64,000 nt of DNA from Defluviicoccus sp. (lineage in GTDB: Bacteria; Pseudomonadota; Alphaproteobacteria; MPNO01): NCBI GenBank assembly GCA_028820505.1, contig JAPPIT010000034.1, positions 25,565 to 89,564 of the forward strand, written 5' to 3'. The position numbers and the translations under genes were made by a program. Below, piece by piece: positions 9,621-61,417 of the stretch (the first letter of the stretch is position 1; each line of letters starts with the position of its first letter). Under the pieces are notes generated by a model. The model worked only from the letters and a program-made list of their open reading frames with translations. It was not told the DNA's origin and did not search any database.

Positions 9621-9621
9621 C

Positions 9622-10089
9622 CTACGAATGCCCCATCATGCGTATCGCTTCGACGATCTTGGTGTATCCCGAGCAACGGCACAGGTTGCCGCCGATCGCC
9701 TCGCGAATCGCATCGACTTCCGGATGCGGGTTTTCGTCGAGCAACGCTCTTGCCGCCAGGACCATGCCCGGCATGCAATATCCGCACTGGATCGCACCGG
9801 ACGCCACGAATGCCTCCTGCACCGGGTCGAGCTCGTTGCCGTTCGCCAACCCTTCGACCGTCAGGATCGCCCGGTCGGTACAGTTGAGGGTGAGCGACAG
9901 GCACGACCGGAACGTCCGCCCGTCCAGGAGTACGGAGCAGGCACCGCAGAGGCCCTGATTGCAGCCCCGCTTGGCTCCGGTCAGGCCGAGCCCCTCTCGC
10001 AATGTGTCCAGCAGCGTGTCGGTCGGCCGTGCCGGCACCTCGACGTCGCGGCCGTTTATCGACAGGACGACAAGCCGCTTGCCGCTCAT
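9622..10089 (-). CDS. (2Fe-2S)-binding small subunit of molybdenum hydroxylase (CoxS-like)
   Basis: 155 aa; plant-type ferredoxin cysteines (CNQGLCGACSV) and a second cluster motif (CGYCMPG…CRCSGY). Confidence 0.9.
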   Translation of the reverse strand: MSGKRLVVLSINGRDVEVPARPTDTLLDTLREGLGLTGAKRGCNQGLCGACSVLLDGRTFRSCLSLTLNCTDRAILTVEGLANGNELDPVQEAFVASGAIQCGYCMPGMVLAARALLDENPHPEVDAIREAIGGNLCRCSGYTKIVEAIRMMGHS

Positions 10090-10943
10090 GCCGCTGCCTC
10101 GCGCCTGGCGATCGCGCGCCCGATCAGCCGGGCGACAAGCCGCGGGATCAGTAACCGGCGGTAATCGGCCGAGCCTCTCACGTCGCTCGGCGGGTCGGCC
10201 GCCTCGACGAGAAGCGCCGCTGCCGCCGTTATCGCTTCCTCGTCAGCGACCGTTCCCACAAGGCACGCATCGGCCTCTTCGACGTGGAGCGGCACCGGTG
10301 CGCAGCCACCGAGCGCCAGCCGGGCGGCGGATATCGCGCCGCTCTCGAAGGCGATCGTCGCCGAGGCGTTGACGGTGGCTATGTCCCCGTGCACCCGGCA
10401 CACCTTCTCGTGCACGCCTGCGGAATCGGGCGCCGGAGCCGGCAGGACGACGGCGGTCACCATCTCGCCCGGCGACAGCGTCGTCGTCAGGTAGAACTCG
10501 AAGAGGTTTTCGACCGGCGTCGACCGCCGGCCGGCGGGACCGACGATCTCCACTGTCGCTCCGGCCGCCACCAGCGCCGCGACCGCGTCGGAGGAGGGGT
10601 CGGCATGGGCGATCGCGCCGCCGATCGTGCCCATGTTGCGGATGACGATGTCGATCGTGCCCAGCGCCTCGTGCAGCACGCCGTTGGCGCGGACGAGGCG
10701 CGTATCGCCAAGGACCTCGCGATGGGTTGTCATCGCACCGATGCGGAAGCCGCCGAAGCCGTCTTCTCGAATTCCATGAAGCTCCTCGATCCGGCGCAGG
10801 CTGACCAGATGCGACGGCTCGAGCATGCCGAAATTCATCATGGCGACCAGAGAGGCGCCGCCCGCGAGGCAACGCGCGTCGTCGTCGGCTGCCAGCAAAC
10901 CGACGGCCTCGTCGATCGTTCTCGGTTCGTGAAAGTCGGGCAT
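10086..10943 (-). CDS. FAD-binding subunit of molybdenum hydroxylase (CoxM-like)
   Basis: FAD-binding PCMH-type sequence (LAGGASLVAMMNFGM…); start set at MPDFHEP (ATG 10943..10941) with GGAAAGGGG upstream; 4-nt overlap with the S-subunit gene. The track ORF extends 71 aa upstream without support. Confidence 0.8.
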   Translation of the reverse strand: MPDFHEPRTIDEAVGLLAADDDARCLAGGASLVAMMNFGMLEPSHLVSLRRIEELHGIREDGFGGFRIGAMTTHREVLGDTRLVRANGVLHEALGTIDIVIRNMGTIGGAIAHADPSSDAVAALVAAGATVEIVGPAGRRSTPVENLFEFYLTTTLSPGEMVTAVVLPAPAPDSAGVHEKVCRVHGDIATVNASATIAFESGAISAARLALGGCAPVPLHVEEADACLVGTVADEEAITAAAALLVEAADPPSDVRGSADYRRLLIPRLVARLIGRAIARREAAA

Positions 10944-11213
10944 GCCCCTTTCCGCCTCGCGTTGAGCCCGAACATCATCGTGCACGCGGCCCGGGAACCC
11001 GCCCTGCGGGCGCTGGGCCGCAAGATCCGATAGCGTAGCCTCGGCCGCTCGACTGCCCCAAGTAACCGGCCCCACCGACCGGTCCGGCTGGAATGTTACT
11101 CGATTGAGGCCGTCACGCGTGAGGGCATCTTCCACCATGTTTGTGGGCTGCTGCACTCGGATGGCTCCGCGGTCGCTCCCAAGCGAACCTCAACAAGGAA
11201 CTACCGCGCCTTC

Positions 11214-11237
11214 CGGGACGCTGGAAGGCGTCCCGGC
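11214..11237. other. strong GC hairpin (CCGGGACGC-tggaag-GCGTCCCGG) in an intergenic region
   Basis: 9-bp perfect stem with a 6-nt loop, about 130 nt upstream of the ABC SBP start and about 270 nt upstream of the CoxM start; no flanking U-tract on either strand. Confidence 0.35.
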
Positions 11238-11366
11238 GAACCGCATCTCTGTCGAGAGTCCGTCGACCTTACCCGGCTTGCACCGTGCCTCGCATCGCAC
11301 TCATACTCGACCCGATACGGGGGCGATAACGGTATCGTCGGAATGAAGCAGGGGAGGTGCGGGATG

Positions 11367-12506
11367 AACATGCGTTTCACGCGACGAAGCGTCCTTAACG
11401 GTCTCGGTTCTTCGGCGGTTCTTGCGGCAGCGACGGGCGCCGCGTCGGTGTCTCCGGGGCGCATGGGCTTCGCTGCGGCGTCCTCCGACTGGCAGGCCGG
11501 GGCTCCCGACGAGTGGCACCGCATTCTGGCGGAGGCGCGCAAGGAGGGTCAGGTTACCGTCGCCGGATTCCCGGCGCTGGCGCGTGGCATGCCGCCGGCG
11601 TTCAAGCGCGATACCGGTATCGAGCTGAAGTTTTTCGGCGGCCGTCCGTCGGAGCTGTCCTCGCGCTTCGAGGCGGAGGCCATGGCCGACAAGATGACGC
11701 TGGACATCATGCTCGGCGGCGGACGCGAGCTCGTCAAGATGAAGCCCGGGGGCTATCTCAACCCCGTGCGGCCGCAGCTCGTTCTTCCCGGCGTCGGGCC
11801 GGAAAACTACCGCGACGGCAAGCTCAAGTTCATGGACGACGATGACCAATATCTGTTGCAGGGCGCCGAATGGGTGTTCGGCTGGCTGCTGGTCAACAAG
11901 GACATCGTCGACCCCGGCAAGATCAAGGTGTGGAAGGACATGCTCAAGCCGGAGTTCCGCGGCAAGATGATCTCGCACGACCCGCGCAGCCCGGGCCCCG
12001 GCCAAGGCGCGACCAACTGGCTCTACAACACCTTCGGCATCGAGTTCGTGAAGGAGTTCTATCTCGGGCAGCAGGCGAAATTCACCACCAGCAACCGCGG
12101 CGTGGTCGAGGAGGTGGTGCGCGGCACGAGGCCCATCGCCTTCGCGTCCATCCAGTTCTTCGTCGAGAAGTTCCGCAGGGAAGGCATCAAGAATCTTGCC
12201 GTGGTGCTGCCCGACGACGCGCCGGGCTACGTGACCGGCGGCTTCTCGGTCCTCAAGCAGGCCAAAAACGTGCCGCATCCCAACGCGGCCCAGGTCTTCA
12301 TCAACTGGTATGTCAGCCGGCCCGGCCAGGAGGTCTATGAGAAGACCATGCTCGCGACCAGCAGGCGCAAGGATGTGAAGACCGGTATCCCGAGCTACCT
12401 GGTTCCGCGGCCCGGCGTGAAGTACTTCGAGGCATACAGCGAGGAGCGTTACCTGCGCCGGAAGGTGGTGGTGAAGGCGATCACCGACGCGCTCGGCAAG
12501 CGCTGA
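11367..12506 (+). CDS. ABC transporter periplasmic substrate-binding protein (Fe3+/2-aminoethylphosphonate SBP family), Tat signal
   Basis: Twin-arginine signal MNMRFTRRSVLNGLG…AAA; SBP-like length; GGGGAGG SD before the ATG at 11367; first gene of a 5-gene same-strand cluster. Confidence 0.75.
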   Translation, partial: NMRFTRRSVLNGLGSSAVLAAATGAASVSPGRMGFAAASSDWQAGAPDEWHRILAEARKEGQVTVAGFPALARGMPPAFKRDTGIELKFFGGRPSELSSRFEAEAMADKMTLDIMLGGGRELVKMKPGGYLNPVRPQLVLPGVGPENYRDGKLKFMDDDDQYLLQGAEWVFGWLLVNKDIVDPGKIKVWKDMLKPEFRGKMISHDPRSPGPGQGATNWLYNTFGIEFVKEFYLGQQAKFTTSNRGVVEEVVRGTRPIAFASIQFFVEKFRREGIKNLAVVLPDDAPGYVTGGFSVLKQAKNVPHPNAAQVFINWYVSRPGQEVYEKTMLATSRRKDVKTGIPSYLVPRPGVKYFEAYSEERYLRRKVVVKAITDALGKR

Positions 12507-12528
12507 CCGCCCGCCCGAGGGACGGCGC

Positions 12529-13044
12529 GTGGCGGGGGATGCCGAAGGCGCGGCGGAAGCCCTGTTGCGGGGCGCCCGCCGCGCCGGCGTGGATGCCTGC
12601 GTCTACCTGCCGGACAGCGTGTTGTTCGGCACCATCCGGGCCTTCCGCGCCAGCGGGGAGGTGCTGATGGTGCCCTGCGCGCGCGAGGACGAAGGCATCG
12701 CCATCGCCGTCGGGCTCGATCTCGGGGGGCGTAATCCGGTGTGCCTGATGGAGGCGTCCGGCCTCGGATACAGCGGGCTGATCCTCGCCCGCGCCCAGGT
12801 CCAGCGGACGCCGGTCGTGATCCTTGCGAGCCATACCGCGGGCGGCGGCGAGCCGATGGACTACCACGGCGCCACGCGGCTCCTGTCCGAAGGCGTGTTC
12901 AGAGGGCTCGGCATACCCTTCGAGATCGCGACCGACTTCGACGGGCTGGAAGACCGGATATTCCGGGCGGTCCAGACCGCGCGCGGACAGCGCACCTGTT
13001 TCGGGCTCCTGGTCCCGCCCCATGTCATGCGGGGAGCGTCCTGA
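12529..13044 (+). CDS. thiamine-diphosphate-dependent decarboxylase alpha subunit (sulfopyruvate/phosphonopyruvate decarboxylase ComD-like)
   Basis: 171 aa TPP-enzyme N-terminal (Pyr) domain; GTG start 12529 with GAGGGA 6 nt upstream; stop overlaps the next start (cTGATGg). Confidence 0.7.
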   Translation: MAGDAEGAAEALLRGARRAGVDACVYLPDSVLFGTIRAFRASGEVLMVPCAREDEGIAIAVGLDLGGRNPVCLMEASGLGYSGLILARAQVQRTPVVILASHTAGGGEPMDYHGATRLLSEGVFRGLGIPFEIATDFDGLEDRIFRAVQTARGQRTCFGLLVPPHVMRGAS

Positions 13045-13631
13045 TGGACCGAATCGAGGCGATGGACATCGTCGCCGCGGCGCGCGGCGACGCAGCGGCG
13101 ATTGCCGGCCCGGGTGTCAACTCCGGGCTTCTCTACGCAAGGGCCGACGCGCCTGCGACCATCTACAACATGGACATGGGCTATGCGACGGCGATCGCGC
13201 TGGGCGCGGCGCTGGCGCGGCCGGACCGCAAGTTGCTCGCCATCGAGGGTGACGGGTCGTTCTTCGCGGGCGCGGCGGTGCTGTCGACGATCTGGCGGAT
13301 GCGACCCGAGAACCTCGTCGTGGTCGTGCTCGACAACGAGGTCTGGGGCACGGGCGAAGGAACCGAGCCGACCGCAACCGGCAGCGGCGCGGACATCGCC
13401 GGGCTGGCGCTCGCGAACGGTTGGGACGCCGCCCATGTCCACACCCCGGCGGGTTCGAACGAGCTCTCCGACCGGATGGGCACGGCGATGGTCGTCGCTG
13501 GCCCCCATCTCGTGGTTTGCAAGACCGACACCAGCCGCGACATGCCGTCCTCGCCCGATCGGCCGGTTCCCAGGCGCCATCAGCTCGACTGCGCGGTGAT
13601 GATGCGCGCGGAATTGAGCGGTGACGCTTAA
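13044..13631 (+). CDS. thiamine-diphosphate-dependent decarboxylase beta subunit (ComE-like, TPP-binding PP domain)
   Basis: 195 aa with TPP-binding motif GDGSFF…(N)…LDNEVWG (GDG-X24-NN-type); ATG at 13044 overlapping the alpha stop (TGATG). The track ORF 12741.. is an upstream read-through. Confidence 0.7.
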   Translation: MDRIEAMDIVAAARGDAAAIAGPGVNSGLLYARADAPATIYNMDMGYATAIALGAALARPDRKLLAIEGDGSFFAGAAVLSTIWRMRPENLVVVVLDNEVWGTGEGTEPTATGSGADIAGLALANGWDAAHVHTPAGSNELSDRMGTAMVVAGPHLVVCKTDTSRDMPSSPDRPVPRRHQLDCAVMMRAELSGDA

Positions 13632-15390
13632 GACCGGCCCGGTCGCCGCTTTGGCCGGAACGGCTTTATCCGAAAACGATCCTGGCGCGGGCTGGACCGG
13701 CCCGGTCGCCGAGACCCTGCTGCGCGGCTTCGGCTGGCTCTGCCTGGCGGCGGTGGCCGCGATCTGCATCCTGCCGGTGCTGCTGATCGTCCTCGGCGGG
13801 TTCAGCGAGGGCGAGCCGATCAACGCGTTCGCCCCGACCCTGGAGCCCTGGGCGCGGGCGCTGGAGAGCAAGCACACGATCGATTCCATCGTGACGTCGT
13901 TCGTGCTCAGCCTGCGCGTGCCGGCGGCGATGCTTATCGCCTTCTTCATCGCCTGGTACCTCGCCCGCAACGACGTCTTCGGCAAGCGCGCCATCATGTT
14001 CTCGCTCTGGGTCGGCTTTTTCCTGCCGATCCTGCCGGCGACCCTCGGCTGGATTCTGCTCCTCGACCCCAATTTCGGGCTGGTCAACGACTGGCTCAAG
14101 AACCTCCCCTTCGTGAGCGGGCCGGCGTTCGACATCTACTCGCTGGGCGGAATCACCTGGGTGCATATCACCCTGTCCACTATCCCGATCATGGTGATCC
14201 TGATCGAGCCGGCCCAGCGGCTGATCGACGCCTCGTTCGAGGAGGCCTCGACCATGTCGGGTGCGGGTACGCTGACGACCCTCCGGCGGGTGACGGTCCC
14301 GCTGATCGCGCCGACCCTGCTGACGGCGTTCATCGCCGGCACGATCCGGTCGCTCGAGGCCTTCGAGGTCGAGCAGCTGCTCGGCCTGCCGGCCGACATC
14401 CTGGTCTATTCCACGCGCATCTATCACCTGCTGAGGGTGATACCGCCGGACGCGCCGCAGTCGATGGCGCTGAGCTCCTTTTTTCTCGTTATCATGTTCG
14501 TGCTGGTCCTCGTTTACCGGGTATGGCTGCAGCGGGCGAGCATGGCCGCGACGCTGACCGGCAGGGGCGCGAAGCTTCAGCCGCGCCAGCGCACGCGGGG
14601 CTCCTACGCGGTCTCGGCCTTCCTGTTTCTGGCCGTCGCGGTGACCATCGGCCTTCCCTTCCTGATGGTTCTGCTGAGTTCGTTCAGCCGGCTTTTCGGC
14701 TTTTTCCACCTGCCCGATCCGTGGACCTTCGGGCACTGGGCGACGGTGCTGGAAGGCGACGAGTTCCTCCGTGCGGTCAACCAGTCGCTGATGACCGGCG
14801 CGGCGGTGGCCATCGCCGGTACGACGATCTATCTCGGCCTCGCCTGGTTCATCGCCCGCAACGCGTTTCCGGGAAAGGGCGCGCTCTCGCTTGCGATCTG
14901 GATGCCCTGGGCGCTGCCGGGCGTTCTGCTCGGGACTGCGTTCCTGGTGATCTTCCTCAACGCGCCGGGGCTGACGATCTTTTACGGGACGGCGGTCGCC
15001 CTGGTCACGGTGCTGATCGTCCAGGGCCTGCCCTTCGCGACCCATCTGTTCGAAGCCTCGATCGGCCAGGTCTCGCGCGAGCTCGAAGAGTCCTCGCTGA
15101 TGAGCGGGGCCGGAAGGCTGGAGACCGTCCTCCGTATCACCGCGCCGCTGGTCGCCCCCGTCGTCGCGACCGTGTTCGTGCTGTCCTTCATGTCGGCGAT
15201 CAAGGACATCAGCGCGACCGTGCTGGTGTCGACGCCCGACACCCTCACCCTGCCGCTGCTGATGTTCGTTTACGCAACGTCGGGACGGCTCGAAGTCGCC
15301 GCGGTGGTCGGCGTGATCACCGTGCTGATCGCCATGGCGATGGCGCTGCTCGTCACCTGGATCGGCGACCGCGCGGCGGTGATCCGATGA
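13621..15390 (+). CDS. ABC transporter permease, fused two-domain type (iron(III)/2-AEP PhnU2-like)
   Basis: 589 aa, about 12 TM segments in two repeated halves, each with an EAA-like loop; GTG start overlaps the decarboxylase-beta stop. Confidence 0.85.
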   Translation: MTLKTGPVAALAGTALSENDPGAGWTGPVAETLLRGFGWLCLAAVAAICILPVLLIVLGGFSEGEPINAFAPTLEPWARALESKHTIDSIVTSFVLSLRVPAAMLIAFFIAWYLARNDVFGKRAIMFSLWVGFFLPILPATLGWILLLDPNFGLVNDWLKNLPFVSGPAFDIYSLGGITWVHITLSTIPIMVILIEPAQRLIDASFEEASTMSGAGTLTTLRRVTVPLIAPTLLTAFIAGTIRSLEAFEVEQLLGLPADILVYSTRIYHLLRVIPPDAPQSMALSSFFLVIMFVLVLVYRVWLQRASMAATLTGRGAKLQPRQRTRGSYAVSAFLFLAVAVTIGLPFLMVLLSSFSRLFGFFHLPDPWTFGHWATVLEGDEFLRAVNQSLMTGAAVAIAGTTIYLGLAWFIARNAFPGKGALSLAIWMPWALPGVLLGTAFLVIFLNAPGLTIFYGTAVALVTVLIVQGLPFATHLFEASIGQVSRELEESSLMSGAGRLETVLRITAPLVAPVVATVFVLSFMSAIKDISATVLVSTPDTLTLPLLMFVYATSGRLEVAAVVGVITVLIAMAMALLVTWIGDRAAVIR

Positions 15391-16535
15391 GCGCGGGCAT
15401 GAAGCTGGTCGTCGAAGACCTGCGCAAGGACTATCACCGCCAGGCGCGGCGGCGCGGCGAGGACGACAAGCCCGCGCTCGACGGGGTGAGCCTCGCCATC
15501 GAGGATGGCGCGTTCTTCACCCTGCTCGGCCCGTCGGGTTGCGGCAAGACCACCCTGCTCCGCTGCATCGCCGGGCTCGAAATCCCCGACGGCGGCGAGA
15601 TTCGGCTGGGCGACCGGATACTGTTTTCGTCGGCCAGGGGCATCAACGTTTCGCCCAACCGGCGCAACCTCGGCATGGTGTTCCAGTCCTACGCGATCTG
15701 GCCGCACATGGATGTCTCCGAAAACGTCGCCTACCCGTTGACGGTTCGCGGTCGACGGGGAACCTACGGCCGGGCGGACATCGACCGCCGGGTCGCCGAG
15801 CTGCTGGACGTGATCCAGATCGCCCATCTCGCGAAACGCAAGGCGACGATGCTTTCCGGCGGACAACAACAGCGCCTCGCCGTGGCCCGCGCACTGGTGA
15901 TGGAGCCGCCGGTTCTGCTCCTGGACGAGCCGCTGTCGAACCTCGACACGCGGTTGCGGGAAGACCTGCGGGTGGAGCTCACCCGCATCCAGGAACGGCT
16001 CGGCGTGACGTCGATCTATGTCACCCACGACCAGGCCGAAGCGCTGGCGATGTCTTCCTCGCTCGCGGTCATGCGGGACGGCGCGATCGAACAGCGCGGC
16101 ACGCCGGAGGAGCTTTACGACTACCCGCGCACGCGGTTCGTCGCCTCCTTTCTCGGCGCCGCCAACCTGGTCGAGGCCCGGGTGCGCTCGGTCGACGACA
16201 GGGGGGCCGACCTGTACCGGTTCGGTGCGGAGACCGTCTGGGGCGCCCGCTTCGATGCGGTGGGCCGGGTGCCGTTCCGCCCGGGCGACCGCGTTTCGGC
16301 CGCCCTCCGGCCCGAGGGCGTGCAGGTGATCCCGCGCGCCGAAACCGGAACCGACGATGCGTGGTCGGGCGCGATCGAGTCGGTACAGTTCCTGGGGGAC
16401 GCGGTGGTCTATTTCGTCCGGCTGCGCGATGTCCTGCTTCGCGCGCGGTCGGATCGCGGCGGACGCCGCTTCGCCGCCGGCGATGCCGTCCGCATCGAGC
16501 TGCGCAGCGAAGCCTGTACCCTGGTCGCCGACTGA
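15387..16535 (+). CDS. ABC transporter ATP-binding protein with C-terminal TOBE domain
   Basis: Walker A GPSGCGKTT, signature LSGGQQQRLAVARAL, Walker B LLLDEP; ATG 15387 overlaps the permease stop (ATGA). Confidence 0.9.
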   Translation: MSAGMKLVVEDLRKDYHRQARRRGEDDKPALDGVSLAIEDGAFFTLLGPSGCGKTTLLRCIAGLEIPDGGEIRLGDRILFSSARGINVSPNRRNLGMVFQSYAIWPHMDVSENVAYPLTVRGRRGTYGRADIDRRVAELLDVIQIAHLAKRKATMLSGGQQQRLAVARALVMEPPVLLLDEPLSNLDTRLREDLRVELTRIQERLGVTSIYVTHDQAEALAMSSSLAVMRDGAIEQRGTPEELYDYPRTRFVASFLGAANLVEARVRSVDDRGADLYRFGAETVWGARFDAVGRVPFRPGDRVSAALRPEGVQVIPRAETGTDDAWSGAIESVQFLGDAVVYFVRLRDVLLRARSDRGGRRFAAGDAVRIELRSEACTLVAD

Positions 16536-16543
16536 GCGACGCC

Positions 16544-17371
16544 TCAGCGGTAGACCGCCTGCGCGCAGCCGGTATCGAAGCCCTCGATGGGCGCATAGAA
16601 CACGCGTTCCGCGCGGCGCCCGGCGAAGGCGCCCGCCAGCACGATCCAGGACCGGACCTCGCCCGTCGAGCTGCCGGCCGCCGTCATCCGGGCATCGCCC
16701 AGCCCGGCCAGCGCCGCGCCGTCGCCGGTGCACAGCCGGTCGAGGAACCACTCGTCGAAGCCGGCGTCGATGCGGCCCTGGTCCAGCGTGCCGACGGAAT
16801 GGGACAACCCGCCGGTCGCGACGATCCCCACCCGCTTGGATGCCGGCCAGTCCGCGATCGCCGCGGCGAGCCAGCGCCCCACGGCGAAGCACCGCCGGGC
16901 CGAGGGCATCGGGGCCGACGCGCAGTTGACGAATACCGGGATCATCGGCACCCGGCCGTCCGGGTCCAGCTTGTGCAGCGGGACCATCATCCCGTGATCG
17001 ACCTCCCAGAACTCCGACACCGCCCAGTCCACGCCCTCGTCGAGGCCGCGTTCGATCAGGTAGCGGGCGAGTTGGGGGTCGCTCGGCACCTCGCGCCAGG
17101 GATAGCCGACGTCCCGCGTCCTGCCCTCGACCGGGCCGGCGAAGCTGTCGAACAGACCCATGCAGAAGGCCGGCATGTTATCGATGAAGAACTTGTTGAC
17201 GTGCTCGGCGGAGACGATGAGACAGACGTCGGGAGCGGCCTCGCGGAGCGCCGCGGCAAGCCGGGCGTAGCCGGCGTCGAAGGCGGCGACCTCGGCCGGG
17301 TCGCCGGCATCGCGTGCATTCACGATATGGGCGAGATGCGAGGTGGCCAGCCCCAGGCAGAGCTCAGCCAT
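16544..17371 (-). CDS. class III extradiol ring-cleavage dioxygenase catalytic (LigB/CarBb-like) subunit
   Basis: 275 aa LigB-family sequence (…SAEHVNKFF…GGLSHS…); start overlaps the stop of the small-subunit gene. Confidence 0.8.
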   Translation of the reverse strand: MAELCLGLATSHLAHIVNARDAGDPAEVAAFDAGYARLAAALREAAPDVCLIVSAEHVNKFFIDNMPAFCMGLFDSFAGPVEGRTRDVGYPWREVPSDPQLARYLIERGLDEGVDWAVSEFWEVDHGMMVPLHKLDPDGRVPMIPVFVNCASAPMPSARRCFAVGRWLAAAIADWPASKRVGIVATGGLSHSVGTLDQGRIDAGFDEWFLDRLCTGDGAALAGLGDARMTAAGSSTGEVRSWIVLAGAFAGRRAERVFYAPIEGFDTGCAQAVYR

Positions 17372-17645
17372 GCCCGTCCGCCTCCACGGCGATGGCGGCG
17401 AACTTCCCGGGCGGGTGGCCGTGCAGCATGAAGTACTTGAAGACGAGGTTGGGCAGGGCCCCGCGGTCGAGCAGCGCCCGCCACCCCGGCGCCTCGAGGG
17501 CGGCGCGCGCCTCCTCGTCCAGCGGGTAGCGGTCGAGCCAGGCCGCCCGGTCCGCGCCGAATTCCCGCCGGCGGGCCGGGTCGCCGAGGTCGAACAGGGC
17601 GCGGTTGAGCCAGTAGCGCGCCGAAGCGGGCGGGGTCCCGGTCAC
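17364..17645 (-). CDS. extradiol dioxygenase small (LigA/CarBa-like) subunit
   Basis: About 94-aa product (VTGTPPASARYWLNRALFDLGDPARRREFGADRAAWLDRYPLDEEARAALEAPGWRALLDRGALPNLVFKYFMLHG…) resembling LigA-domain proteins; GTG at 17645..17643 overlaps the upstream Rieske stop (GTGA). The track shows only a longer 160-aa ORF whose N-terminus is GC-junk. Confidence 0.5.
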   Translation of the reverse strand: MTGTPPASARYWLNRALFDLGDPARRREFGADRAAWLDRYPLDEEARAALEAPGWRALLDRGALPNLVFKYFMLHGHPPGKFAAIAVEADGHG

Positions 17646-18826
17646 GGAGCGCGCCGTCCGGCATACCCGCGGCCCTGGATGCCGCGATTGTGCTTGCTGG
17701 CGAGCTTGCGCCATTCGGTGACCACCACGTCCGGGCGGTAGAGCCGCTCGCGATTCCAGCCGTCCTCCTCGCTGTAGAACCGCTCCATCGCCTCGCGGGC
17801 GAACACGTCCTCGTCGTTGAAGCGGTCGACCACCATCTCGCGCCAATATGTGTCGACCTCGTGAGCGAAGCGTTCCTGCTCGACCGGATCCGATACCCGC
17901 TTGCCCCAGGTGACCATGTAGTAGTGGGAATGCTCATCAATGGGGACGTACCATTCGAAATGGGTGATGCCGAGAGCCGGGAACGGATCGACCTTCAGAC
18001 CGCAGGGCATCCAGAGCGACGTGTCGGTGCCCTTGGAGCCCGCGCGGTCTTCATCGGGCATGGTCCGGGCGGCGATTCTCTCGCCCTCGATCTCGGTCTC
18101 CCAGACGGAGATCTTGCGGCCCGCCCCCTTGACGACGCCCTTGGGACCGCCGGGCGTATCCACCACCATGTCTTCGCGGGTAACGAAATAGCTCGCCAGC
18201 GGAACGGCGCGGCCGAGCGCGCTCAGCAGCCGCGAGTTGCGGTGGATGTAAATATGCGACGCATCGACCCCGTTCTCCGCCGCGAGGCGCCAGTTGCTCC
18301 TCACCACGCCCCGGTCGCCGTCGGGTGCGATATAGAGGTCGTCGTCGAGGAAGCCCGGCTGTACGTCCTCGACCAGCGGCGGCGGGTCGCCGTCGCCGAT
18401 GAAGACGAAGACGACGTTCTGCCGTTCCTCGACACGATAGGTCCTGAGCGCGACCTTGCCGATGAGCGGGCTCTCGGGGTCGGTGACGATCGCCACCAGC
18501 TTGCCGTCCCTGAGATCGTAGGTGAAGCCGTGATACCAGCAGGTCACCGTGTTGGCCGAGTAGCATTCGGGACGTGCCGAGAACGGAACCCCGCGATGGG
18601 CGCAACGGTCCTCGATCGCGTAGACACGACCGCCGATGCGCTTGAACAGCACCCGTTCGGCGAGGAGCTCCAGCCCCAGGCACTCCCCTTCCGCGATCTC
18701 CTTCGAGAAGCAGGCGGGGTACCAGTGATTGCGGAAGCCGAGTGCCGCCTTGAGATAGGACGCCCAGGGCTTGTTGTCGAAGTCCGCTTCCGGTCCGGCC
18801 GCAAGGTCCGTTTCGCTGTCCGCCAT
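17642..18826 (-). CDS. Rieske non-heme-iron oxygenase, single-component alpha type (CarAa/phthalate-dioxygenase-like)
   Basis: CAHRG…CWYHGF Rieske motif; RNHWYPAC N-terminal motif; start MADSETD (ATG 18826..18824) with GAAGGGGG SD; the track ORF adds 28 unsupported residues. Confidence 0.8.
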   Translation of the reverse strand: MADSETDLAAGPEADFDNKPWASYLKAALGFRNHWYPACFSKEIAEGECLGLELLAERVLFKRIGGRVYAIEDRCAHRGVPFSARPECYSANTVTCWYHGFTYDLRDGKLVAIVTDPESPLIGKVALRTYRVEERQNVVFVFIGDGDPPPLVEDVQPGFLDDDLYIAPDGDRGVVRSNWRLAAENGVDASHIYIHRNSRLLSALGRAVPLASYFVTREDMVVDTPGGPKGVVKGAGRKISVWETEIEGERIAARTMPDEDRAGSKGTDTSLWMPCGLKVDPFPALGITHFEWYVPIDEHSHYYMVTWGKRVSDPVEQERFAHEVDTYWREMVVDRFNDEDVFAREAMERFYSEEDGWNRERLYRPDVVVTEWRKLASKHNRGIQGRGYAGRRAP

Positions 18827-18837
18827 GCGTACCCCCT

Positions 18838-19674
18838 TCAATCCGACAGGAAGCCGACCACCAGGCGATTGAACGCTTCGGCGTGTTCGACCTGCGCCCA
18901 ATGACCGCATCGCGCGAAGATGTGCATCTGAGCCCGCTTCATCAGCCGGGTCATCTGAAGCCCCACATCCAGCGCCCCGAACCGGTCGTCCATGCCCCAG
19001 ACGATCAGCGTCGGGGACTCGATCTTGCCAAGGTCCGCGTACAGGTCTTCCTTCTTGTAACGGCCCTGGCGCTTGGCGAAGAGTTCGAGGTTGTCGGGCT
19101 CGATCGTCGTCTGGAACCGTTCCTCGACGACCTCGTCGGTGAGGAAGGAGGAGTCGTAGACCAGCGTGTCGAGAAGCTTGCGCAGCTTCTCCCGGGTCGG
19201 CCCCTCGCCCTTGTAGTAGTCGGCGATCATCTTGATGCCCTCGAGCGGGCTCGGCACGAAGATCGGATTGTTGATTGCTCCCGGGCCGAGCACCACCAGA
19301 CGGTCCACCCGCTCCGGCTTGTCGACGGCGAGCTTCAGCGCCACCTGCCCGCCCATCGAGTTCCCGATGTAATGCGCGCGTTCGATGCCGGTCTCGGTCA
19401 TGAACGCGTCCATCACCCGGGCGTTGAAGCCGAGCCGTCCCTCTTCGATCGGCACCTTCTCGCTCTTGCCGAATTGCGGCATGTCGACCAGCACGGCGCG
19501 GAAGCGTTCGGAGAGCGCGCCGACATTGCGCCGGAAGTTGCTCTCGCTGTTCGCGCCGGGGCCCGCGCCGTGGAGGCAGATGATCGGGTAGCCCCGGCCC
19601 ACCTCCTTGTAGTGCACCCGCACACCGGCCGCGGTCACGAATTGGCTGTCGGACAGGTCTCCGCGTGGTGCCAT
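18838..19674 (-). CDS. alpha/beta-hydrolase, meta-cleavage product (C-C bond) hydrolase family (BphD/CarC/HsaD-like)
   Basis: 278 aa; nucleophile elbow GNSMGG; HGAGPG oxyanion region; C-terminal catalytic His (HWAQ); 25 nt downstream of the M20 gene and 11 nt upstream of the Rieske gene. Confidence 0.85.
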   Translation of the reverse strand: MAPRGDLSDSQFVTAAGVRVHYKEVGRGYPIICLHGAGPGANSESNFRRNVGALSERFRAVLVDMPQFGKSEKVPIEEGRLGFNARVMDAFMTETGIERAHYIGNSMGGQVALKLAVDKPERVDRLVVLGPGAINNPIFVPSPLEGIKMIADYYKGEGPTREKLRKLLDTLVYDSSFLTDEVVEERFQTTIEPDNLELFAKRQGRYKKEDLYADLGKIESPTLIVWGMDDRFGALDVGLQMTRLMKRAQMHIFARCGHWAQVEHAEAFNRLVVGFLSD

Positions 19675-19699
19675 GGGCCGTTCTCCCTCCGCTGGTCGC

Positions 19700-21022
19700 C
19701 TATGATACTACGCCGCACAGATCGAGCGCGGTCAGCGCGTAGACCTTCGACAGGGCAAGCAGATCGTCGACCGCCATCGGCCGCCGGTCTCCCGCGAGCC
19801 CACCGCCGAGAAACGCGGAGCGCGCACGCCCGCCATAGCAGACGGCGGGGATTCCCGCCTCGTTGAACGCGTTGGTGTCCCGCCAGGTGCTTATCGGACC
19901 GGACTCCGCGAATTCCATCGCCTCGTCGAAAACGCGCCGGTGCGCGCGGCCCAGCGCCTCGCCCAACGGGTCCGCGTCCTCGGCGAGATAGCCCCGCCGA
20001 TAGTCGTAGGGCGAGACCTCGCAATCCAGCCCCGTCGCGCCTAGTGTCCGCCGCACCCGGTCGAGAATCTCCGCCGGTCGGGCACCGGGCACGAGGCGCA
20101 CGTCGAAGAACACGTTGCAGCTATCGGAAACCTCGGTGAAGGGGAGGCCGCCCGCCGCCACCTCGCAAACCTGGGCGCGGGGCACGATCGTTCCCTTTCC
20201 GAAGTCGAGCGCGTCGGTTGTCTCGTAGTCCGTCGCCCAGGACTCGAGCGCCGAAATCACATGGGCCGCGCGCTCGAAGGGGTTGGGGTTGTCGCCGGGC
20301 GTCTCGCCGCGGATCAGAAGCGGCGTATAGCGCAGATGGCCGGGTACGGCGATCCGGAGCCGGAGATAGCCGGCCTGGCCCAGACCGAGCTTGAAGTCGG
20401 TGATTTCGCCGACAAGCGCGTAGTCGGCGACGATCCCGTGCTCGACCAGCCAGCGCGCGCCGTGACCCTCCCGCACCTGGCTCATGCGCGGCCCGATTCC
20501 GGACCAGCCCTCGATCTCCTCGCCGCGCTCCGGCGGAGCGCCGGTTTCCTGGGCGACTCCTGTAACGTAGAGGGTCTCGCGGAGCCGAAATCCCGCCCGG
20601 ACAATGGTGCGCATGGCGATCATCTGCGCGGCGAGCTGGGCTTTGTCGTTGGCGAGCCCGTTGCCGAACAGGAGCCCGTCCTGCTCGTGCGCGCCGCGCA
20701 GCCGCCGCTCCTCCTCCGCCCCGGCGGCGGGTGCCGCGCCCTGCGTGTCCATGTGGGCGTTGAGAATCAGCGAGCGGGCGCCGCCCGACCGATCGCCGGT
20801 GCCGCGCAGGATCCCGACGGCATTGGCGCTGGCCGCGTCGATCCGCTGCAGCCGGGTTTCGATCCCCGCCTCGTCGAGCCACGCTTCGACCGCCTGGGCG
20901 ACCGCGATTTCGTCTCCGGCGTAATCGCGCGCATTGCCGAGGCTGAGGCAAAGCTCGACCAGCTCCTGCCTCTGCCCGTCGACGATTTCGATGACCCGAT
21001 CCGCGAGCGCCGTCGCTTCCAC
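19700..21022 (-). CDS. M20-family metallo-amidohydrolase/peptidase (ArgE/DapE/CPG2-like)
   Basis: M20 signature around LNAHMDT and the dimerisation domain; start uncertain: GTG at 21022 (GAGGGA SD), alternative GTG at 21037; the track start at 21163 is unsupported. Confidence 0.7.
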   Translation of the reverse strand: MEATALADRVIEIVDGQRQELVELCLSLGNARDYAGDEIAVAQAVEAWLDEAGIETRLQRIDAASANAVGILRGTGDRSGGARSLILNAHMDTQGAAPAAGAEEERRLRGAHEQDGLLFGNGLANDKAQLAAQMIAMRTIVRAGFRLRETLYVTGVAQETGAPPERGEEIEGWSGIGPRMSQVREGHGARWLVEHGIVADYALVGEITDFKLGLGQAGYLRLRIAVPGHLRYTPLLIRGETPGDNPNPFERAAHVISALESWATDYETTDALDFGKGTIVPRAQVCEVAAGGLPFTEVSDSCNVFFDVRLVPGARPAEILDRVRRTLGATGLDCEVSPYDYRRGYLAEDADPLGEALGRAHRRVFDEAMEFAESGPISTWRDTNAFNEAGIPAVCYGGRARSAFLGGGLAGDRRPMAVDDLLALSKVYALTALDLCGVVS

Positions 21023-21186
21023 CTCTCGATCCCTCACGAGTCGATTGCGTCGTCGAATATCTTGAACCCGCCAGCCCAAGACCGCCAGAGGCGGTTCACA
21101 CAAGTCCGGACGCCGGAGTAGTTTTCCATCGAGGCGATGCACCCCGACCCAGGCGGAAAACACGTTGCCCGGCGAGGAGACGAGAC

Positions 21187-22518
21187 ATGACGCACCCCCA
21201 GCTCGGGCCGGAACGGCAGGCGTGGTTCGACAGGGCCGTCTCCCTGATCGACGAGGAGCGCATCCACCGTCTGGCGTTCGAGCTCACCGCAATCCACAGC
21301 CCGACCGGACGCGAGCGCGCGGCAAGCGAATACATGGTGGCCCGGCTTGCCGAGGCGGGCCTCGAGTCCTGGTACCAGCCGATGGGCGAGGCATCGGGCA
21401 ACGCGGCCGCCAGGCTGCGGGGAAGCGGCGGCGGGCCGAGCCTGCTGCTCTACGCGCCGATAGACACCCATCTCGAGGCCGATCGGGAAACCGACATCCC
21501 GTGGGTCGGCCCCGGGCTCCGACAGGACATGGTTCCCGAGCCGGTGGTGCGCGACGGGCTGATCATCGGGCTCGGCGCCGCCAACCCCAAGGCGATGGTC
21601 GCCACCCAGACGGAAGCCGCCCGCGTGATCGCCGAGGCCGGCATCCCGCTCACCGGCGAGCTGCTGGTCGGGTTCGCCGGTGGCGGTATGCCGGTCGACC
21701 TCGCAGCGCCAGGAAACCGAGGACTGTCGGACGGCGTCTTCCACCTCCTGACCCGCGGCGTCCATGCCGATTTCGCGCTGGTCATGAAGCCGGGAAACGC
21801 GGTCTATTACGAGGAGCCCGGGCTATGCTGGTTCAAGGTGTCGGTCAGGGGCACGATGGGATATGCCGGAATCGCCCGAGGCGTTCCGGGCTTTCGCAGT
21901 TCGATCGTGCCGGCGGCGACGGTGATCGCCGAATTGGAAAACTGGCTCCCGGGCTATACCGAGCGCAACAGTTCGGGCCAGGTGATGCCGCAGGGCTGGT
22001 TGGCGGCGGTGCACGGCGGATGGCCCGATCGGGTGGCCTTTCCCTCAGCGACCACAGAAATCCATCTCGACATCCGCTGCAATCCGCGGACGCCGCCCGC
22101 GGATGTAGCCGCCCAGTTCGGCGCGGCGATCGACGACATCCGCGCGAACCATCCCGAATTCGATCTCGACTGGGAGATGACCGCGGCGATCCCCGGAGCG
22201 AGCACCGACCCGGACAGCTGGATCGTCCGGTCCGCGATCGCCGCGTGGGAGGCGGTCGAAGGACGAGCCCATGAGGCGCCGCGCCGGACCAGCGGCCAGA
22301 CCGACATCTCGACCATCCGCAATCTCGGCATCCCAACCGCGCGCACCGGCTGGGTCAGCGTGCCGGAAGCGACGCCCGAGGAATTCCGGGAGGGCTTGGG
22401 CGGCATGGGGGTCACCAGCGCCTCCGACCTCGCACATACCTGCCGAAAGCTGGTCTATTCCATCATCGACACTTGCACCCGGACGCGCGGGGAGGTGGGC
22501 TGCATCGGCAGGCCATGA
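21187..22518 (+). CDS. M20-family metallo-amidohydrolase/peptidase
   Basis: 443 aa; M20 motifs (LLLYAPIDTH…; GIG…); divergent from the other M20 gene. Confidence 0.8.
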   Translation: MTHPQLGPERQAWFDRAVSLIDEERIHRLAFELTAIHSPTGRERAASEYMVARLAEAGLESWYQPMGEASGNAAARLRGSGGGPSLLLYAPIDTHLEADRETDIPWVGPGLRQDMVPEPVVRDGLIIGLGAANPKAMVATQTEAARVIAEAGIPLTGELLVGFAGGGMPVDLAAPGNRGLSDGVFHLLTRGVHADFALVMKPGNAVYYEEPGLCWFKVSVRGTMGYAGIARGVPGFRSSIVPAATVIAELENWLPGYTERNSSGQVMPQGWLAAVHGGWPDRVAFPSATTEIHLDIRCNPRTPPADVAAQFGAAIDDIRANHPEFDLDWEMTAAIPGASTDPDSWIVRSAIAAWEAVEGRAHEAPRRTSGQTDISTIRNLGIPTARTGWVSVPEATPEEFREGLGGMGVTSASDLAHTCRKLVYSIIDTCTRTRGEVGCIGRP

Positions 22519-24486: not shown

Positions 24487-25896
24487 TCAGGATCGATGGG
24501 AATCGCTCGGTCCGTGGAGACGAACGATATCGGCATCGTCGATCGACCGGATCCCCGTTTCCAAATGCTCCCGCGTGAACGCATCCATCGAGACGCCCAC
24601 GGGTTCGCCTCCGACCACCGCGGGGCGCCCGGCAACCACCGTCGCAACGATATTGGCCCGGTCGTAGTAACGCACCAGTTCCCACACGAAATCCCAGGAT
24701 GGCAGAACTTCCGGAGACTCCATTTCGAGGACCAGGAAATCCGCCTCCAGCCCCGGTTCGAGCGCGCCGGTGACCGCGCCGAGACCGGCCACCTGCGCCC
24801 CCGCCCTGGTCGCCGCATCGAGCCAGATCCAGCCGGCGCCGCAGGAAAAATCGTCGTTGGGCATCCCATAGGCCAGACGCTGACAGACCTCCGCCGCATC
24901 GAGCAGACGGAATGCGTCGTTGCGCGTGGCGTCGGTGCCGAGCCCGATGCGGATACCGCGGCGGGCGTAATCGAGGGCGGGGGCCACGCCGTTGCCCTTC
25001 CACTGGCTGGCCACCGGGTTGTAGGACACCGCGGTATCCGTATCGCCGAGGATGACGATTTCGTCGCCGGTGACCAGCGCCGCGTGGGCGATCAGCGTTG
25101 TCGGCCCGAGGGCGCCGAGCTTGTTGAGATATTCGATCGGTCGGCAGCCTTCCCGCTCGATACAGCGATGGACTTCCGGCGTGTGCTCATTGGCATGGAT
25201 CTGGAAGACGATGCCCCGTTCCGCGCAATAATCCGACAGGCATTTGATCATCTCGCCGCTGTTCGACTGCACGGTGCCGCAGGCAAGGGACGGCGTGACG
25301 TTGCGTCGCCTCGCCGTCCGCGCGACGTGGTCGTCGGCGGTTCGCAGCGCATCGTCGACGGTCGACGCGGCCGCCGGTTTCGTCGCGTCGGTCTCGAAAT
25401 CGGACAGGTCGTAGACTCCGGTCGACGAGACGAGCCGCAAACCGGTTTCCTCGGCGGCTCTCTGGATGGCGTCGGTGTGGTCGACGCCGCGGATGCCGTG
25501 ATCGACGATCGTCGTGAAACCGCCGCGCAGCGCCTCGAAGAAGGTCCATTTGGCGGCGATGTACGCTGTTTCGGGGGTCGACGCTTCCTCGAGCGGCATC
25601 CATATCCGCTTCCACATCTGGGCCGGCTCGCCGCAGGTGATCGCCTTGGCGAAGGGTTCGGTGACATGGTGATGGGTATCGACGAACCCGGGCACGATCG
25701 CCCGTTTCTCCAGGCGAATGGTCGGGATTTTCGGATCGACGGTTGACTCGCGCCCGGACGTGGGTTCGATGGCAAGAATCTTGCCGTTCTCGACCGCCAT
25801 GACCGCATCGCGGATCGGACCGTCCGGTCCCAGAATAAGGTCGGGGCGCAACGCGTACGCCCCGACCGAACCCAGACTCTCGAGACCGTGGGTCAC
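24487..25896 (-). CDS. amidohydrolase-superfamily metal-dependent hydrolase (ATZ/TRZ / cytosine-deaminase-like), paralog 1
   Basis: HxH metal motif (VDTHHHV), HANEH and GLGTD motifs; GTG start 25896..25894 overlaps the SBP stop (GTGA); about 45% identity by eye to the paralog at 28533..29963. Confidence 0.8.
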   Translation of the reverse strand: MTHGLESLGSVGAYALRPDLILGPDGPIRDAVMAVENGKILAIEPTSGRESTVDPKIPTIRLEKRAIVPGFVDTHHHVTEPFAKAITCGEPAQMWKRIWMPLEEASTPETAYIAAKWTFFEALRGGFTTIVDHGIRGVDHTDAIQRAAEETGLRLVSSTGVYDLSDFETDATKPAAASTVDDALRTADDHVARTARRRNVTPSLACGTVQSNSGEMIKCLSDYCAERGIVFQIHANEHTPEVHRCIEREGCRPIEYLNKLGALGPTTLIAHAALVTGDEIVILGDTDTAVSYNPVASQWKGNGVAPALDYARRGIRIGLGTDATRNDAFRLLDAAEVCQRLAYGMPNDDFSCGAGWIWLDAATRAGAQVAGLGAVTGALEPGLEADFLVLEMESPEVLPSWDFVWELVRYYDRANIVATVVAGRPAVVGGEPVGVSMDAFTREHLETGIRSIDDADIVRLHGPSDSHRS

Positions 25897-43193: not shown

Positions 43194-43222
43194 CGGTACA
43201 ATCTCGTGGAGCGATGGAGCAT

Positions 43223-43753
43223 TCAGACGGGATCGGCGTTGACCAGGACCGCGGCGAGCAGGCAGGGCTCGTCGGTCCGCACGCTCCATGAGTGGTTGGT
43301 GCCGCGCTGGACCATGACGTCGCCGACCCGGAGACATACTTCGCCGGTATCGAGGATCGCCCAGATCTCGCCCTTCAGGACGACCAGATAATCCACCGTC
43401 GAGGTCTTGTGCATCATCGGATCGCTGCTCGCGATATCCGCCGCGTGTCCGGCGCCGATCGAGTCGAAGGCGTCCCGGGCGTCGGCGCGGTCGCGCAACG
43501 CGCTGTCGGGCGGAAACTCGACGATGCGGAAGACGGTCCCGCCCGGCCCCGGTTCGAGCACGACCGGACCGTCGGCGGCGTCGGTGCGTCCCGAATTGTC
43601 GGCCGGGGCGCCGTCGGTGCGCCACAGCTCGGTCAGCGCCAGGCCCGGCATCGATTCCATCTCTTTGACCGTGCCGGCGTCGCCGTCGATGACGAATACC
43701 GACTTGCCCCGGTCGTCGTGCGCCGTGACCACGCGGCGGATTTTCTCGACCAA
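43223..43753 (-). CDS. cupin-domain protein
   Basis: 176 aa; C-terminal cupin barrel segment (…YLVVLKGEIWAILDTGEVCLRVGDVMVQRGTNHSW…). Confidence 0.6.
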   Translation of the reverse strand: MVEKIRRVVTAHDDRGKSVFVIDGDAGTVKEMESMPGLALTELWRTDGAPADNSGRTDAADGPVVLEPGPGGTVFRIVEFPPDSALRDRADARDAFDSIGAGHAADIASSDPMMHKTSTVDYLVVLKGEIWAILDTGEVCLRVGDVMVQRGTNHSWSVRTDEPCLLAAVLVNADPV

Positions 43754-43756
43754 TTC

Positions 43757-44755: not shown

Positions 44756-44887
44756 CGCCGGTTTCTTCGCCAAGCGGGGCAGGCGGCGGACGGGAAGCCG
44801 CAATTTTGAGAACCGTCGTGCATTTGTTAGGATTTCCGCCTCCACCTTCGAAACGCACCTGTTCGGCGAACGCCGGAGGAGAGACGA

Positions 44888-50286: not shown

Positions 50287-50293
50287 GGCCGCC

Positions 50294-61312: not shown

Positions 61313-61417
61313 CGGCTGACCCGTTCGCGTCGACCGGCCCGCCTCCCGGTGTGGCCGGACGCGCGGGCCGCCACTATTCTCGCGGAAGAGACGCTGACCG
61401 GGTAGGGAGCCCTCGAC

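Follow-up and report, generated by a model that had tools for sequence, protein, structure and literature searches.

The car operon for carbazole degradation, known from Pseudomonas resinovorans (plasmid pCAR1) and Novosphingobium KA1 (pCAR3), is the system of nearest architecture to the genes described here. We analysed a stretch of 64,000 nucleotides (nt) from a Defluviicoccus genome (assembly GCA_028820505.1, contig JAPPIT010000034.1, positions 25,565 to 89,564; hereafter the window, whose own numbering is used throughout), in which five tightly packed genes of the minus strand encode an M20 hydrolase, an alpha/beta hydrolase, a Rieske oxygenase and the two subunits, LigA and LigB, of an extradiol dioxygenase. 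This cluster shares with the car operon a PF11723 Rieske oxygenase made of alpha subunits only, with identical metal ligands, a LigA/LigB-type ring-cleavage enzyme encoded by tightly overlapping genes, and a meta-cleavage hydrolase. It differs in lacking the CarAc ferredoxin and CarAd, in its order C-Aa-Ba-Bb, and in what stands around it: M20 hydrolases resembling 5-nitroanthranilate aminohydrolase (NaaA), a thiamine pyrophosphate (TPP)-dependent decarboxylase, a molybdenum hydroxylase and an ATP-binding cassette (ABC) importer. An earlier reading, made from the letters of this DNA (the sequence-only reading), had seen in it a carbazole/2-aminophenol-type pathway. On balance, we lean to the view that the five genes are no carbazole operon and form the oxidative ring-opening core of a larger module, which would catabolise an imported, polar, benzo-fused N-heterocyclic carboxylate.

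A precedent for such chemistry comes from a 2025 study that reconstituted the lumichrome catabolism (lum) of Nocardioides simplex (PMC12746152; commentary in PMC12752717). There, an aminohydrolase turns 3-aminoquinoxaline-2-carboxylate into the 3-oxo acid, which is decarboxylated by LumK/LumL, a TPP enzyme of a rare kind with two subunits (about 20 + 23 kDa). A xanthine-oxidase-type enzyme then makes quinoxaline-2,3-dione, from which a Rieske dioxygenase, by dihydroxylation and ring opening, produces a catechol carrying an N-aryl oxamide, on which an extradiol dioxygenase and a hydrolase act. The authors expect variants of the route, and recall an older Pseudomonas route yielding oxamide (PMC12746152). 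The same reaction types are found in the Defluviicoccus module (aminohydrolase, split TPP decarboxylase, xanthine-oxidase-family hydroxylase, Rieske oxygenase, extradiol dioxygenase and hydrolase, with transport genes in the cluster), and the sizes of LumK/LumL fit those of its two TPP subunits (171 + 195 amino acids, aa).

Two further systems bear on the comparison. In Pseudomonas putida 86, OxoOR and quinoline 2-oxidoreductase (Qor) have in common with the role proposed for the module a PF11723 oxygenase that acts on a lactam produced by a molybdenum hydroxylase; OxoO is a monooxygenase, and the window oxygenase is nearer to CarAa. NaaA of Bradyrhizobium sp. JS329 opens its pathway by hydrolytic loss of an aromatic amino group; in its substrate the ring is electron-poor and bears a carboxylate ortho to this group. 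A monocupin dioxygenase comes later in the JS329 pathway, whereas the partners of the M20 enzymes here are a Rieske oxygenase and LigAB.

The five-gene block

Public gene calls with Pfam matches, on contigs identical to the window sequence, cover nearly the whole window, whose GC content is about 67%. The block is composed as follows:

19700-21022, minus strand: M20a, an M20 hydrolase related to NaaA; 440 aa, GTG start; PF01546 and PF07687
18838-19674, minus strand: meta-cleavage-product (C-C bond) hydrolase of BphD/MhpC/HsaD type; 278 aa; Abhydrolase_1, 101 bits
17642-18826, minus strand: CarAa/OxoO-family Rieske oxygenase, alpha subunit only; 394 aa; PF00355 and PF11723 ("homotrimeric ring hydroxylase"), 236.7 bits
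17364-17645, minus strand: LigA-type small subunit of an extradiol dioxygenase; 93 aa; PF07746, 43.8 bits against a gathering score of 25.3
16544-17371, minus strand: LigB-type catalytic subunit of a class III extradiol dioxygenase; 275 aa; PF02900, 125 bits

The gene content, the order and the gaps of 25, 11, -4 and -8 nt given by the sequence-only reading were reproduced from the open reading frames and their translations, and Pfam confirmed each family. The RNHWYP motif occupies oxygenase residues 32-37. The proposed GTG start of the small subunit, inside a GTGA spanning the Rieske stop codon, was also confirmed, and the 93-aa product scores above the Pfam threshold for a LigA domain. The overlap between Rieske stop and LigA start was found again in 12 orthologous loci, which supports the start codon; variants are an ATGA in locus L020 and, in L021, an ATG 5 nt downstream (L numbers designate the loci of the genome comparison below). 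This recurrence suggests that translation of the two genes may be coupled. The 8-nt overlap of LigA and LigB is likewise conserved in orthologous loci. Automated annotation had been expected to miss the small subunit. It does not: a 93-aa gene with a LigA domain and the very same start is present in the public calls for identical contigs, and the orthologue in L006 figures in public gene calls too. The five-gene block is conserved in many genomes, that is, more than by chance.

A larger module conserved with the block

The conserved module spans approximately 7299-22518 of the window. Besides the block, it comprises:

7299-9620, minus strand: molybdopterin large subunit of a molybdenum hydroxylase (xanthine dehydrogenase family); 773 aa; identified by Pfam, NCBIfam matches below cut-offs
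9622-10089, minus strand: [2Fe-2S] small subunit of the molybdenum hydroxylase; PF00111 and PF01799
10086-11156, minus strand: medium subunit of the molybdenum hydroxylase, binding flavin adenine dinucleotide (FAD); PF00941 and PF03450
11364-12506, plus strand: periplasmic substrate-binding protein of the ABC importer; SBP_bac_8, weak PhnS2 match; co-occurs with the cluster
12529-13044, plus strand: TPP_N, N-terminal-domain subunit of a two-subunit TPP decarboxylase; 171 aa; PF02776
13044-13631, plus strand: TPP_C, TPP-binding subunit of the same decarboxylase; 195 aa; PF02775
13621-15390, plus strand: fused ABC permease; 589 aa; BPD_transp_1; 49% identical to the gene of the Jiangella operon described below
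15399-16535, plus strand: ABC ATPase with TOBE_2 domain; 378 aa; 46% identity to its Jiangella counterpart; convergent with LigB, 8 nt apart
21187-22518, plus strand: M20b, a second NaaA-like M20 hydrolase, divergently transcribed; 443 aa; 85 bits to NaaA in the PDB, next match 23

Both TPP subunits matched models of sulfopyruvate decarboxylase below the cut-offs, TPP_N at 50.6 bits (alpha model) and TPP_C at 90.6 bits (beta model). TPP_N is 41% identical to the Jiangella gene, and TPP_C scored 40 bits to the phosphonopyruvate decarboxylase beta subunit in the PDB. The TPP_C family is small: an exhaustive search of representatives gave 8 cluster representatives at E <= 1e-30, and a word-indexed search recovered the close clade only. 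Jiangella and Chloroflexota were among the names returned by the representative search and the cluster look-up, and Nocardioides was absent from them.

Conservation was then measured in 80 species-representative loci searched with the window proteins, and split by identity of the oxygenase into a clade of at least 60% (19 loci) and a set below 60% (61 loci, car-like or more distant). Counts were as follows:

Hydrolase at 50% identity or more: 16/19 clade loci, 0/61 distant loci
LigB at 50% identity or more: 14/19 clade loci, 0/61 distant loci
LigA: 14/19 clade loci, 1/61 distant loci
M20 hydrolase of either type: 12/19 clade loci, 3/61 distant loci
Two-subunit TPP enzyme: 11/19 clade loci, 0/61 distant loci
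Molybdenum large subunit: 13/19 clade loci, 3/61 distant loci
ABC permease: 11/19 clade loci, 0/61 distant loci
CarAc-type ferredoxin: 0/19 clade loci, 16/61 distant loci

Membership of the module persists while gene order shifts. L021 carries, all on one strand, the genes for the hydrolase, Rieske oxygenase, LigA, LigB, substrate-binding protein, TPP_N, TPP_C, permease and ATPase, an isochorismatase-family gene and the three molybdenum-hydroxylase subunits. In Jiangella mangrovi, an actinobacterium available in culture, there is a single operon with TPP_N, TPP_C, permease, ATPase, molybdenum large subunit, Fer2 and FAD subunits, M20, hydrolase, LigB and PF11723 Rieske oxygenase, whose products are 29-49% identical to the window proteins. 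TPP_N and TPP_C are also linked to a PF11723 Rieske oxygenase, a hydrolase and LigB in L092. Stellaceae loci have an isochorismatase-family amidase inserted between the Rieske gene and LigA, and in Rhodococcus jostii NBRC 16295 and a Thermoleophilaceae metagenome-assembled genome (MAG) a Rieske oxygenase and a NaaA-like M20 enzyme are accompanied by a type I extradiol enzyme in place of LigAB. We found no description of the module in the literature on kynurenate, on 8-hydroxycoumarin/quinoline or on angular dioxygenation of lactams. The gene set is both widespread and uncharacterised.

A plasmid collection gave no close DNA match; at the protein level it returned true car plasmids only, and TPP_C had no match. 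The module contains no regulator gene. Rfam detected no riboswitch, those for FMN (flavin mononucleotide) and TPP being the ones sought, and a scan for promoters and terminators did not rise above the level of shuffled sequence. The 207-bp divergent intergenic region between the FAD-subunit gene and that of the substrate-binding protein has a near-perfect palindrome, CCGGGACGC-TGGAAG-GCGTCCCGG, at 11205-11245, and a second inverted repeat (CGATACG...CGTATCG-like) at 11300-11345. Both could be operator sites.

The M20 hydrolases resemble an aromatic aminohydrolase

The sequence-only reading had taken the M20 enzyme as a sign that the substrate is N-acylated or an anilide. M20a matched NaaA (PDB 5k8m) over its full length, with 232 bits and 37% identity, the next solved match being at 33 bits; for M20b, which lies beyond the region covered by that reading, NaaA is again the best match of known structure. 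The M20 proteins bear no resemblance to generic N-acyl or anilide amidases, and, since NaaA removes an aromatic amino group, an amidase is not the best reading of them. By analogy, the NaaA substrate may be likened to 3-aminoquinoxaline-2-carboxylate, which likewise has amino and carboxylate groups in ortho position and an electron-poor ring.

The two M20 proteins share 29% identity and are distributed differently. M20a is limited to Defluviicoccus-like genomes (5 of the 19 clade loci), whereas orthologues of M20b, 71-92% identical, adjoin the cluster in 12 of the 19, Stellaceae included, and copies at 34-43% identity occur in Jiangella, Rhodococcus jostii, Thermoleophilaceae and Solirubrobacteraceae. 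The conserved M20 partner of the oxygenase across phyla is M20b rather than M20a.

Kinship of the oxygenase and of the ring-cleavage enzymes

In a carbazole (or 2-aminobiphenyl/aminophenol-type) pathway, CarAa-like angular dioxygenation would give an aminobiphenyl-diol, LigAB would cleave it as CarBaBb, and the hydrolase would act as CarC and release an anthranilate, which an M20 enzyme might then deaminate. The family of the oxygenase speaks for such a pathway. Compared with solved structures in the PDB, it scored about 365 bits with each of the three types of CarAa, as against 258 bits with OxoO, so that it belongs to the CarAa/OxoO (PF11723) family and groups with the angular dioxygenases, as had been proposed. 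All metal ligands of CarAa are kept (equivalents of C69, H71, C90, H93, D180, H183, H187 and D333), and so are most pocket residues (L270, V272, F275, E284, F329 and N330). The two-subunit extradiol enzyme, with its LigA and LigB genes overlapping by 8 nt as in pCAR3, points the same way, as does the fact that NaaA acts on an anthranilate, anthranilate being the product of CarC.

Identities tell otherwise. Taking the pCAR1 and pCAR3 proteins as reference, the oxygenase is 45-47% identical to CarAa, whereas the two CarAa are 60% identical to each other. The hydrolase is 30-31% identical to CarC (60% between the two plasmids) and LigB is 31% identical to CarBb (43% between the two); LigA is 39% identical to the CarBa of pCAR3 and 27% to that of pCAR1 (39% between the two). 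In the oxygenase pocket, I262 of CarAa is replaced by a Thr conserved across the clade, a change that we count in favour of the proposed module. Q282 is replaced by His in the sublineage of the window, and a loop is shortened by a deletion near positions 204/205.

The closest relatives of the oxygenase form a separate clade, at 60-96% identity and all from MAGs, the nearest named one being a Defluviicoccus MAG (96%). More than 1,181 database proteins matched at E <= 1e-30, and the best 120 of these were 61-88% identical and came from uncultured organisms. Close relatives are all from uncultured wastewater or soil MAGs, with no known carbazole degrader among them, which also argues against carbazole. 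Many of the 61-88% metagenome proteins carry the Joint Genome Institute (JGI) label 'carbazole 1,9a-dioxygenase', a point that can be held in favour of a carbazole pathway, though their distance from proven CarAa is about that of the window protein. These labels are probably a systematic over-annotation of the clade.

For the hydrolase, BphD and MhpC are closer relatives than CarC: PDB scores were 228 bits for BphD, 203 for MhpC, 194 for HsaD and 113 for CarC, and the HsaD and BphD models of NCBIfam matched below their cut-offs. It carries GNSMGG and CGHW motifs, which we take to be typical of the meta-cleavage-product hydrolase class. LigA matched the solved LigA (1b4u_A) at E = 1e-4. LigB is roughly equidistant from solved LigB (86 bits), gallate dioxygenase (82 bits) and MhpB (80 bits, PDB 8k04); it stays below every NCBIfam cut-off, the MhpB models reaching 131 bits. 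At positions presumed to be those of the LigB iron ligands, it has the corresponding His and Glu. Pfam and PDB comparison thus confirmed both a two-subunit LigA/LigB-type enzyme and a hydrolase of the meta-cleavage-product class. With protocatechuate 4,5-dioxygenase LigAB and with BphD/MhpC, these proteins share folds, and they miss the NCBIfam equivalog cut-offs by a wide margin. They do not make a protocatechuate or gallate dioxygenase proper by NCBIfam, with 26.5 bits for PCA_ligA against a cut-off of 108.6, and 112.6 for gallate dioxygenase against 412. A 2-aminophenol dioxygenase of AmnAB type was rejected, as the small subunit here is a 93-aa LigA-domain protein and that of AmnAB presumably a LigB-like paralogue, an argument from assumed architecture and not from AmnAB sequences.

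We conclude that the cluster has a car-type architecture but is no car orthologue, because of the low identities to the car proteins, the greater proximity of the hydrolase to BphD/MhpC, and the scores of LigB below cut-offs. Of the carbazole-type reading, the CarAa-family oxygenase, the LigA/LigB enzyme and the class of the hydrolase stood; orthology to car did not, with CarBb and CarC at about 30% and CarAc missing, and the block proved to be part of a larger module.

Electron supply

Four Rieske oxygenases are present in the window according to Pfam on the public gene calls:

3272-4450: Rieske oxygenase
17642-18826: Rieske oxygenase of the five-gene block
42018-43193: Rieske oxygenase
52740-53807: Rieske oxygenase

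The sequence-only reading had counted four and had seen neither ferredoxin nor reductase, and three approaches bore this out. Domain lists contained no stand-alone ferredoxin and no reductase of FNR (ferredoxin-NADP reductase) or GR (glutathione reductase) type in the window. A tblastn of the window with CarAc (two types), CarAd and the reductase of a relative gave no match, and a six-frame scan of the window for cysteine motifs found only the Rieske sites of the oxygenases themselves. Other [2Fe-2S] domains occur in the window only in SoxA and in the small subunit of the molybdenum hydroxylase. The oxygenases must therefore draw their electrons from components encoded beyond the window.

In three relatives (L006, L018 and L024), a 338-aa reductase adjoins the cluster, with an N-terminal plant-type [2Fe-2S] domain (Fer2) followed by FAD and nicotinamide adenine dinucleotide (NAD) domains. 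As a CarAc-type ferredoxin was found in none of the 19 clade loci, the oxygenase system is likely a two-component one, with an FNR-type reductase bearing an N-terminal [2Fe-2S] domain. Genome OY763326.1 has two copies of the cluster, L018 with the reductase and L012 without, and it is therefore plausible that the reductase for the window oxygenase is supplied in trans.

The reductase-bearing copy lies near NikA-like and TrwC relaxase genes (L006, 1499-3093 and 20487-21200; L018, 20457 onward), which hints at a mobile element. Next after this copy comes another PF11723 oxygenase, which shares just 44% identity with the first. Two PF11723 oxygenases in tandem also occur in the Chloroflexota locus L008.

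Proposed role of the module

Gene presence, family assignments and co-occurrence are observed facts, from which we infer the following chemical steps and their substrate. The ABC system would import the acid. A NaaA-like M20 enzyme would exchange a ring amino or amidine group for oxygen hydrolytically, or would free nitrogen later, from the opened ring. The two-subunit TPP enzyme would take off the carboxylate beside the ring C=N, and the molybdenum hydroxylase would oxidise the carbon adjacent to nitrogen, giving a lactam. The CarAa-type oxygenase, receiving electrons from an FNR-type reductase with an N-terminal [2Fe-2S] domain encoded elsewhere, would then attack the benzo ring at the nitrogen-bearing fusion carbon, and breakage of the C-N bond would yield a catechol with an amide side chain. 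LigAB would cleave this catechol, and the BphD/MhpC-like hydrolase would cut the ring-fission product. Counting in favour of this scheme are the clade-specific association of the TPP, molybdenum, M20 and ABC genes, the shifts of their order across phyla, the pairing of Rieske oxygenase and NaaA-like M20, the activity of NaaA itself, the reductase next to the cluster in relatives, and the lum precedent.

As substrates, we would rank first quinoxalinone carboxylates such as those arising from lumichrome (vitamin B2) breakdown, and second compounds of quinoline-2-carboxylate or 2-quinolone type. Within the proposed scheme, a quinoxalinone- or lumichrome-derived substrate specifically is a rather doubtful choice. 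We tentatively put forward, as a possibility with less in its favour than the scheme as a whole, an undescribed, phylum-spanning module for quinoxalinone- or lumichrome-derived or similar N-heterocyclic acids, combining alpha-only, CarAa-type angular dioxygenation of a lactam with hydrolytic aromatic C-N cleavage by NaaA-like M20 enzymes. If this is true, Defluviicoccus in wastewater and Stellaceae in soil would have a second, convergent way of carrying out the lower half of vitamin B2 breakdown.

Several observations weigh against the proposed role. The lum parallel is the closest functional precedent, as a likeness of enzyme families and chemistry and not of Lum sequences, and it breaks down at several places. 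The lum oxygenase (LumABCD) has four components, with alpha and beta subunits and its own ferredoxin and reductase, whereas the window oxygenase is an alpha-only PF11723 protein that has neither beta subunit nor ferredoxin. LumJ consists of one polypeptide of 140 kDa, whereas the hydroxylase here has three subunits (7299-11156). LumE and LumW, the lum extradiol enzyme and hydrolase, are of other families than LigAB and the alpha/beta hydrolase. The lum operon includes a P450 (cytochrome P450) and pyrimidine-opening enzymes. The module has no P450, and the candidates for pyrimidine opening in the window, two deaminases and a protein resembling N,N-dimethylformamidase (DMFase), are not conserved with it. 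The molybdenum large subunit scored 377 bits to the 4-hydroxybenzoyl-CoA reductase alpha subunit and 298 bits to Qor in the PDB, and by these scores has no specific affinity to any known N-heterocycle hydroxylase. Within the window, the cluster and the ABC/TPP operon face each other, so that their co-regulation can only be supposed. The reductase was not located in the window's own genome. Finally, the CarAa pocket is otherwise well kept, and judging from these residues the oxygenase may still accept a hydrophobic, carbazole-like substrate.

Alternative explanations

The most serious rival, which we nevertheless consider unlikely, is a quinoline/quinaldate pathway of Qor/OxoOR (8-hydroxycoumarin) type. 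The TPP enzyme would decarboxylate quinoline-2-carboxylate, the molybdenum hydroxylase would give 2-quinolone, and the PF11723 oxygenase would hydroxylate C8 or open the ring at C8a; the M20 enzymes would remove nitrogen, and the MhpB-like LigB and MhpC-like hydrolase would finish. OxoO is indeed the other characterised PF11723 enzyme, and the adjacent molybdenum hydroxylase, with its score to Qor, the MhpB scores of LigB and the MhpC score of the hydrolase all agree with this pathway. The partner found in relatives is a reductase with an N-terminal [2Fe-2S] domain, no separate ferredoxin being seen, and we take OxoR to be built alike (Fer2, then FAD and NAD domains), an assumption about domain order and not a sequence comparison. 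On the other side, the oxygenase is clearly nearer to CarAa than to OxoO, and the window has no reductase. MhpB is not known to need a LigA subunit, whereas LigB here comes with one. We found no literature tying M20 enzymes to the 8-hydroxycoumarin/quinoline route. The sole TPP heterocycle decarboxylase demonstrated so far takes a quinoxalinone carboxylate (PMC12746152).

The five-gene cluster might instead be self-contained, the TPP, ABC and molybdenum neighbours belonging to an unrelated pathway co-inherited on a catabolic island. In its favour, the ABC/TPP operon occupies the other strand, the wider region is full of unrelated genes for nitrogen-compound catabolism, and in four loci (L016, L017, L019 and L020) the available stretch contains the block but neither TPP nor ABC genes. 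This explanation seems improbable to us, as the association outlasts rearrangement and jumps between phyla (L021 on a single strand, the Jiangella operon, Stellaceae, Chloroflexota, L092), and the TPP and ABC permease genes are missing from all the more distant loci.

A genuine carbazole pathway we hold to be very improbable, in spite of the family of its oxygenase and the kept pocket, given the identities to car proteins, the CarAc-type ferredoxin confined to the car-like set, the conserved importer, TPP decarboxylase and molybdenum hydroxylase that have no role in carbazole catabolism, and the hydrophobicity of carbazole, for which we know of no importer requirement.

Implications

More than 1,000 environmental proteins resemble the oxygenase, many of them automatically labelled carbazole dioxygenase, and if the clade serves an N-heterocycle pathway these labels mislead surveys of pollutant degradation. 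The proposed role, if true, would bring new substrates to three sparsely characterised enzyme types, the CarAa/OxoO oxygenases, the NaaA-type aminohydrolases and the two-subunit TPP heterocycle decarboxylases. How quinoxaline or quinoline rings derived from vitamins or drugs are recycled by bacteria abundant in wastewater and soil may likewise become clearer. As Jiangella mangrovi is cultured and has the whole gene set in one operon, the idea is directly testable.

Other features of the window

Between 23383 and 31031, amidohydrolases resembling TRZ/ATZ or guanine deaminases (24487-25896 and 28533-29951) flank an NMT1-type ABC transporter, together with a TauE-family membrane protein and a LysR regulator. 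This region could be an upstream deamination module. A 735-aa protein (4788-6995, plus strand) has DMFA2_C (N,N-dimethylformamidase-like) as its sole Pfam match and no NCBIfam match; in size it comes close to LumH of the lum pathway (80 kDa). Neither this DMFase-like protein nor TauE nor the two deaminases are conserved with the cluster in other genomes, and all were rejected as module members for this reason.

After the third Rieske oxygenase, which matches LigXa_C faintly, come a weak cupin of 176 aa and a protein of the FAA-hydrolase family of 362 aa (42018-44845, minus strand). An old-yellow-enzyme gene adjoins this region, where there is no reductase for the third oxygenase either. A complete heterotetrameric sarcosine oxidase operon (soxB, soxD, soxA, soxG; 46546-51550, minus strand) has a BCCT transporter next to it (44889-46532, plus strand). 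Further on, hydantoinase/oxoprolinase B and A genes (minus strand) lie beside a creatininase-family gene (plus strand) at 57610-62188, near a two-domain glyoxalase-type dioxygenase (56672-57622), a 2-oxoglutarate-Fe(II) oxygenase and a gamma-glutamyltranspeptidase, making up an island for the catabolism of small nitrogen compounds.

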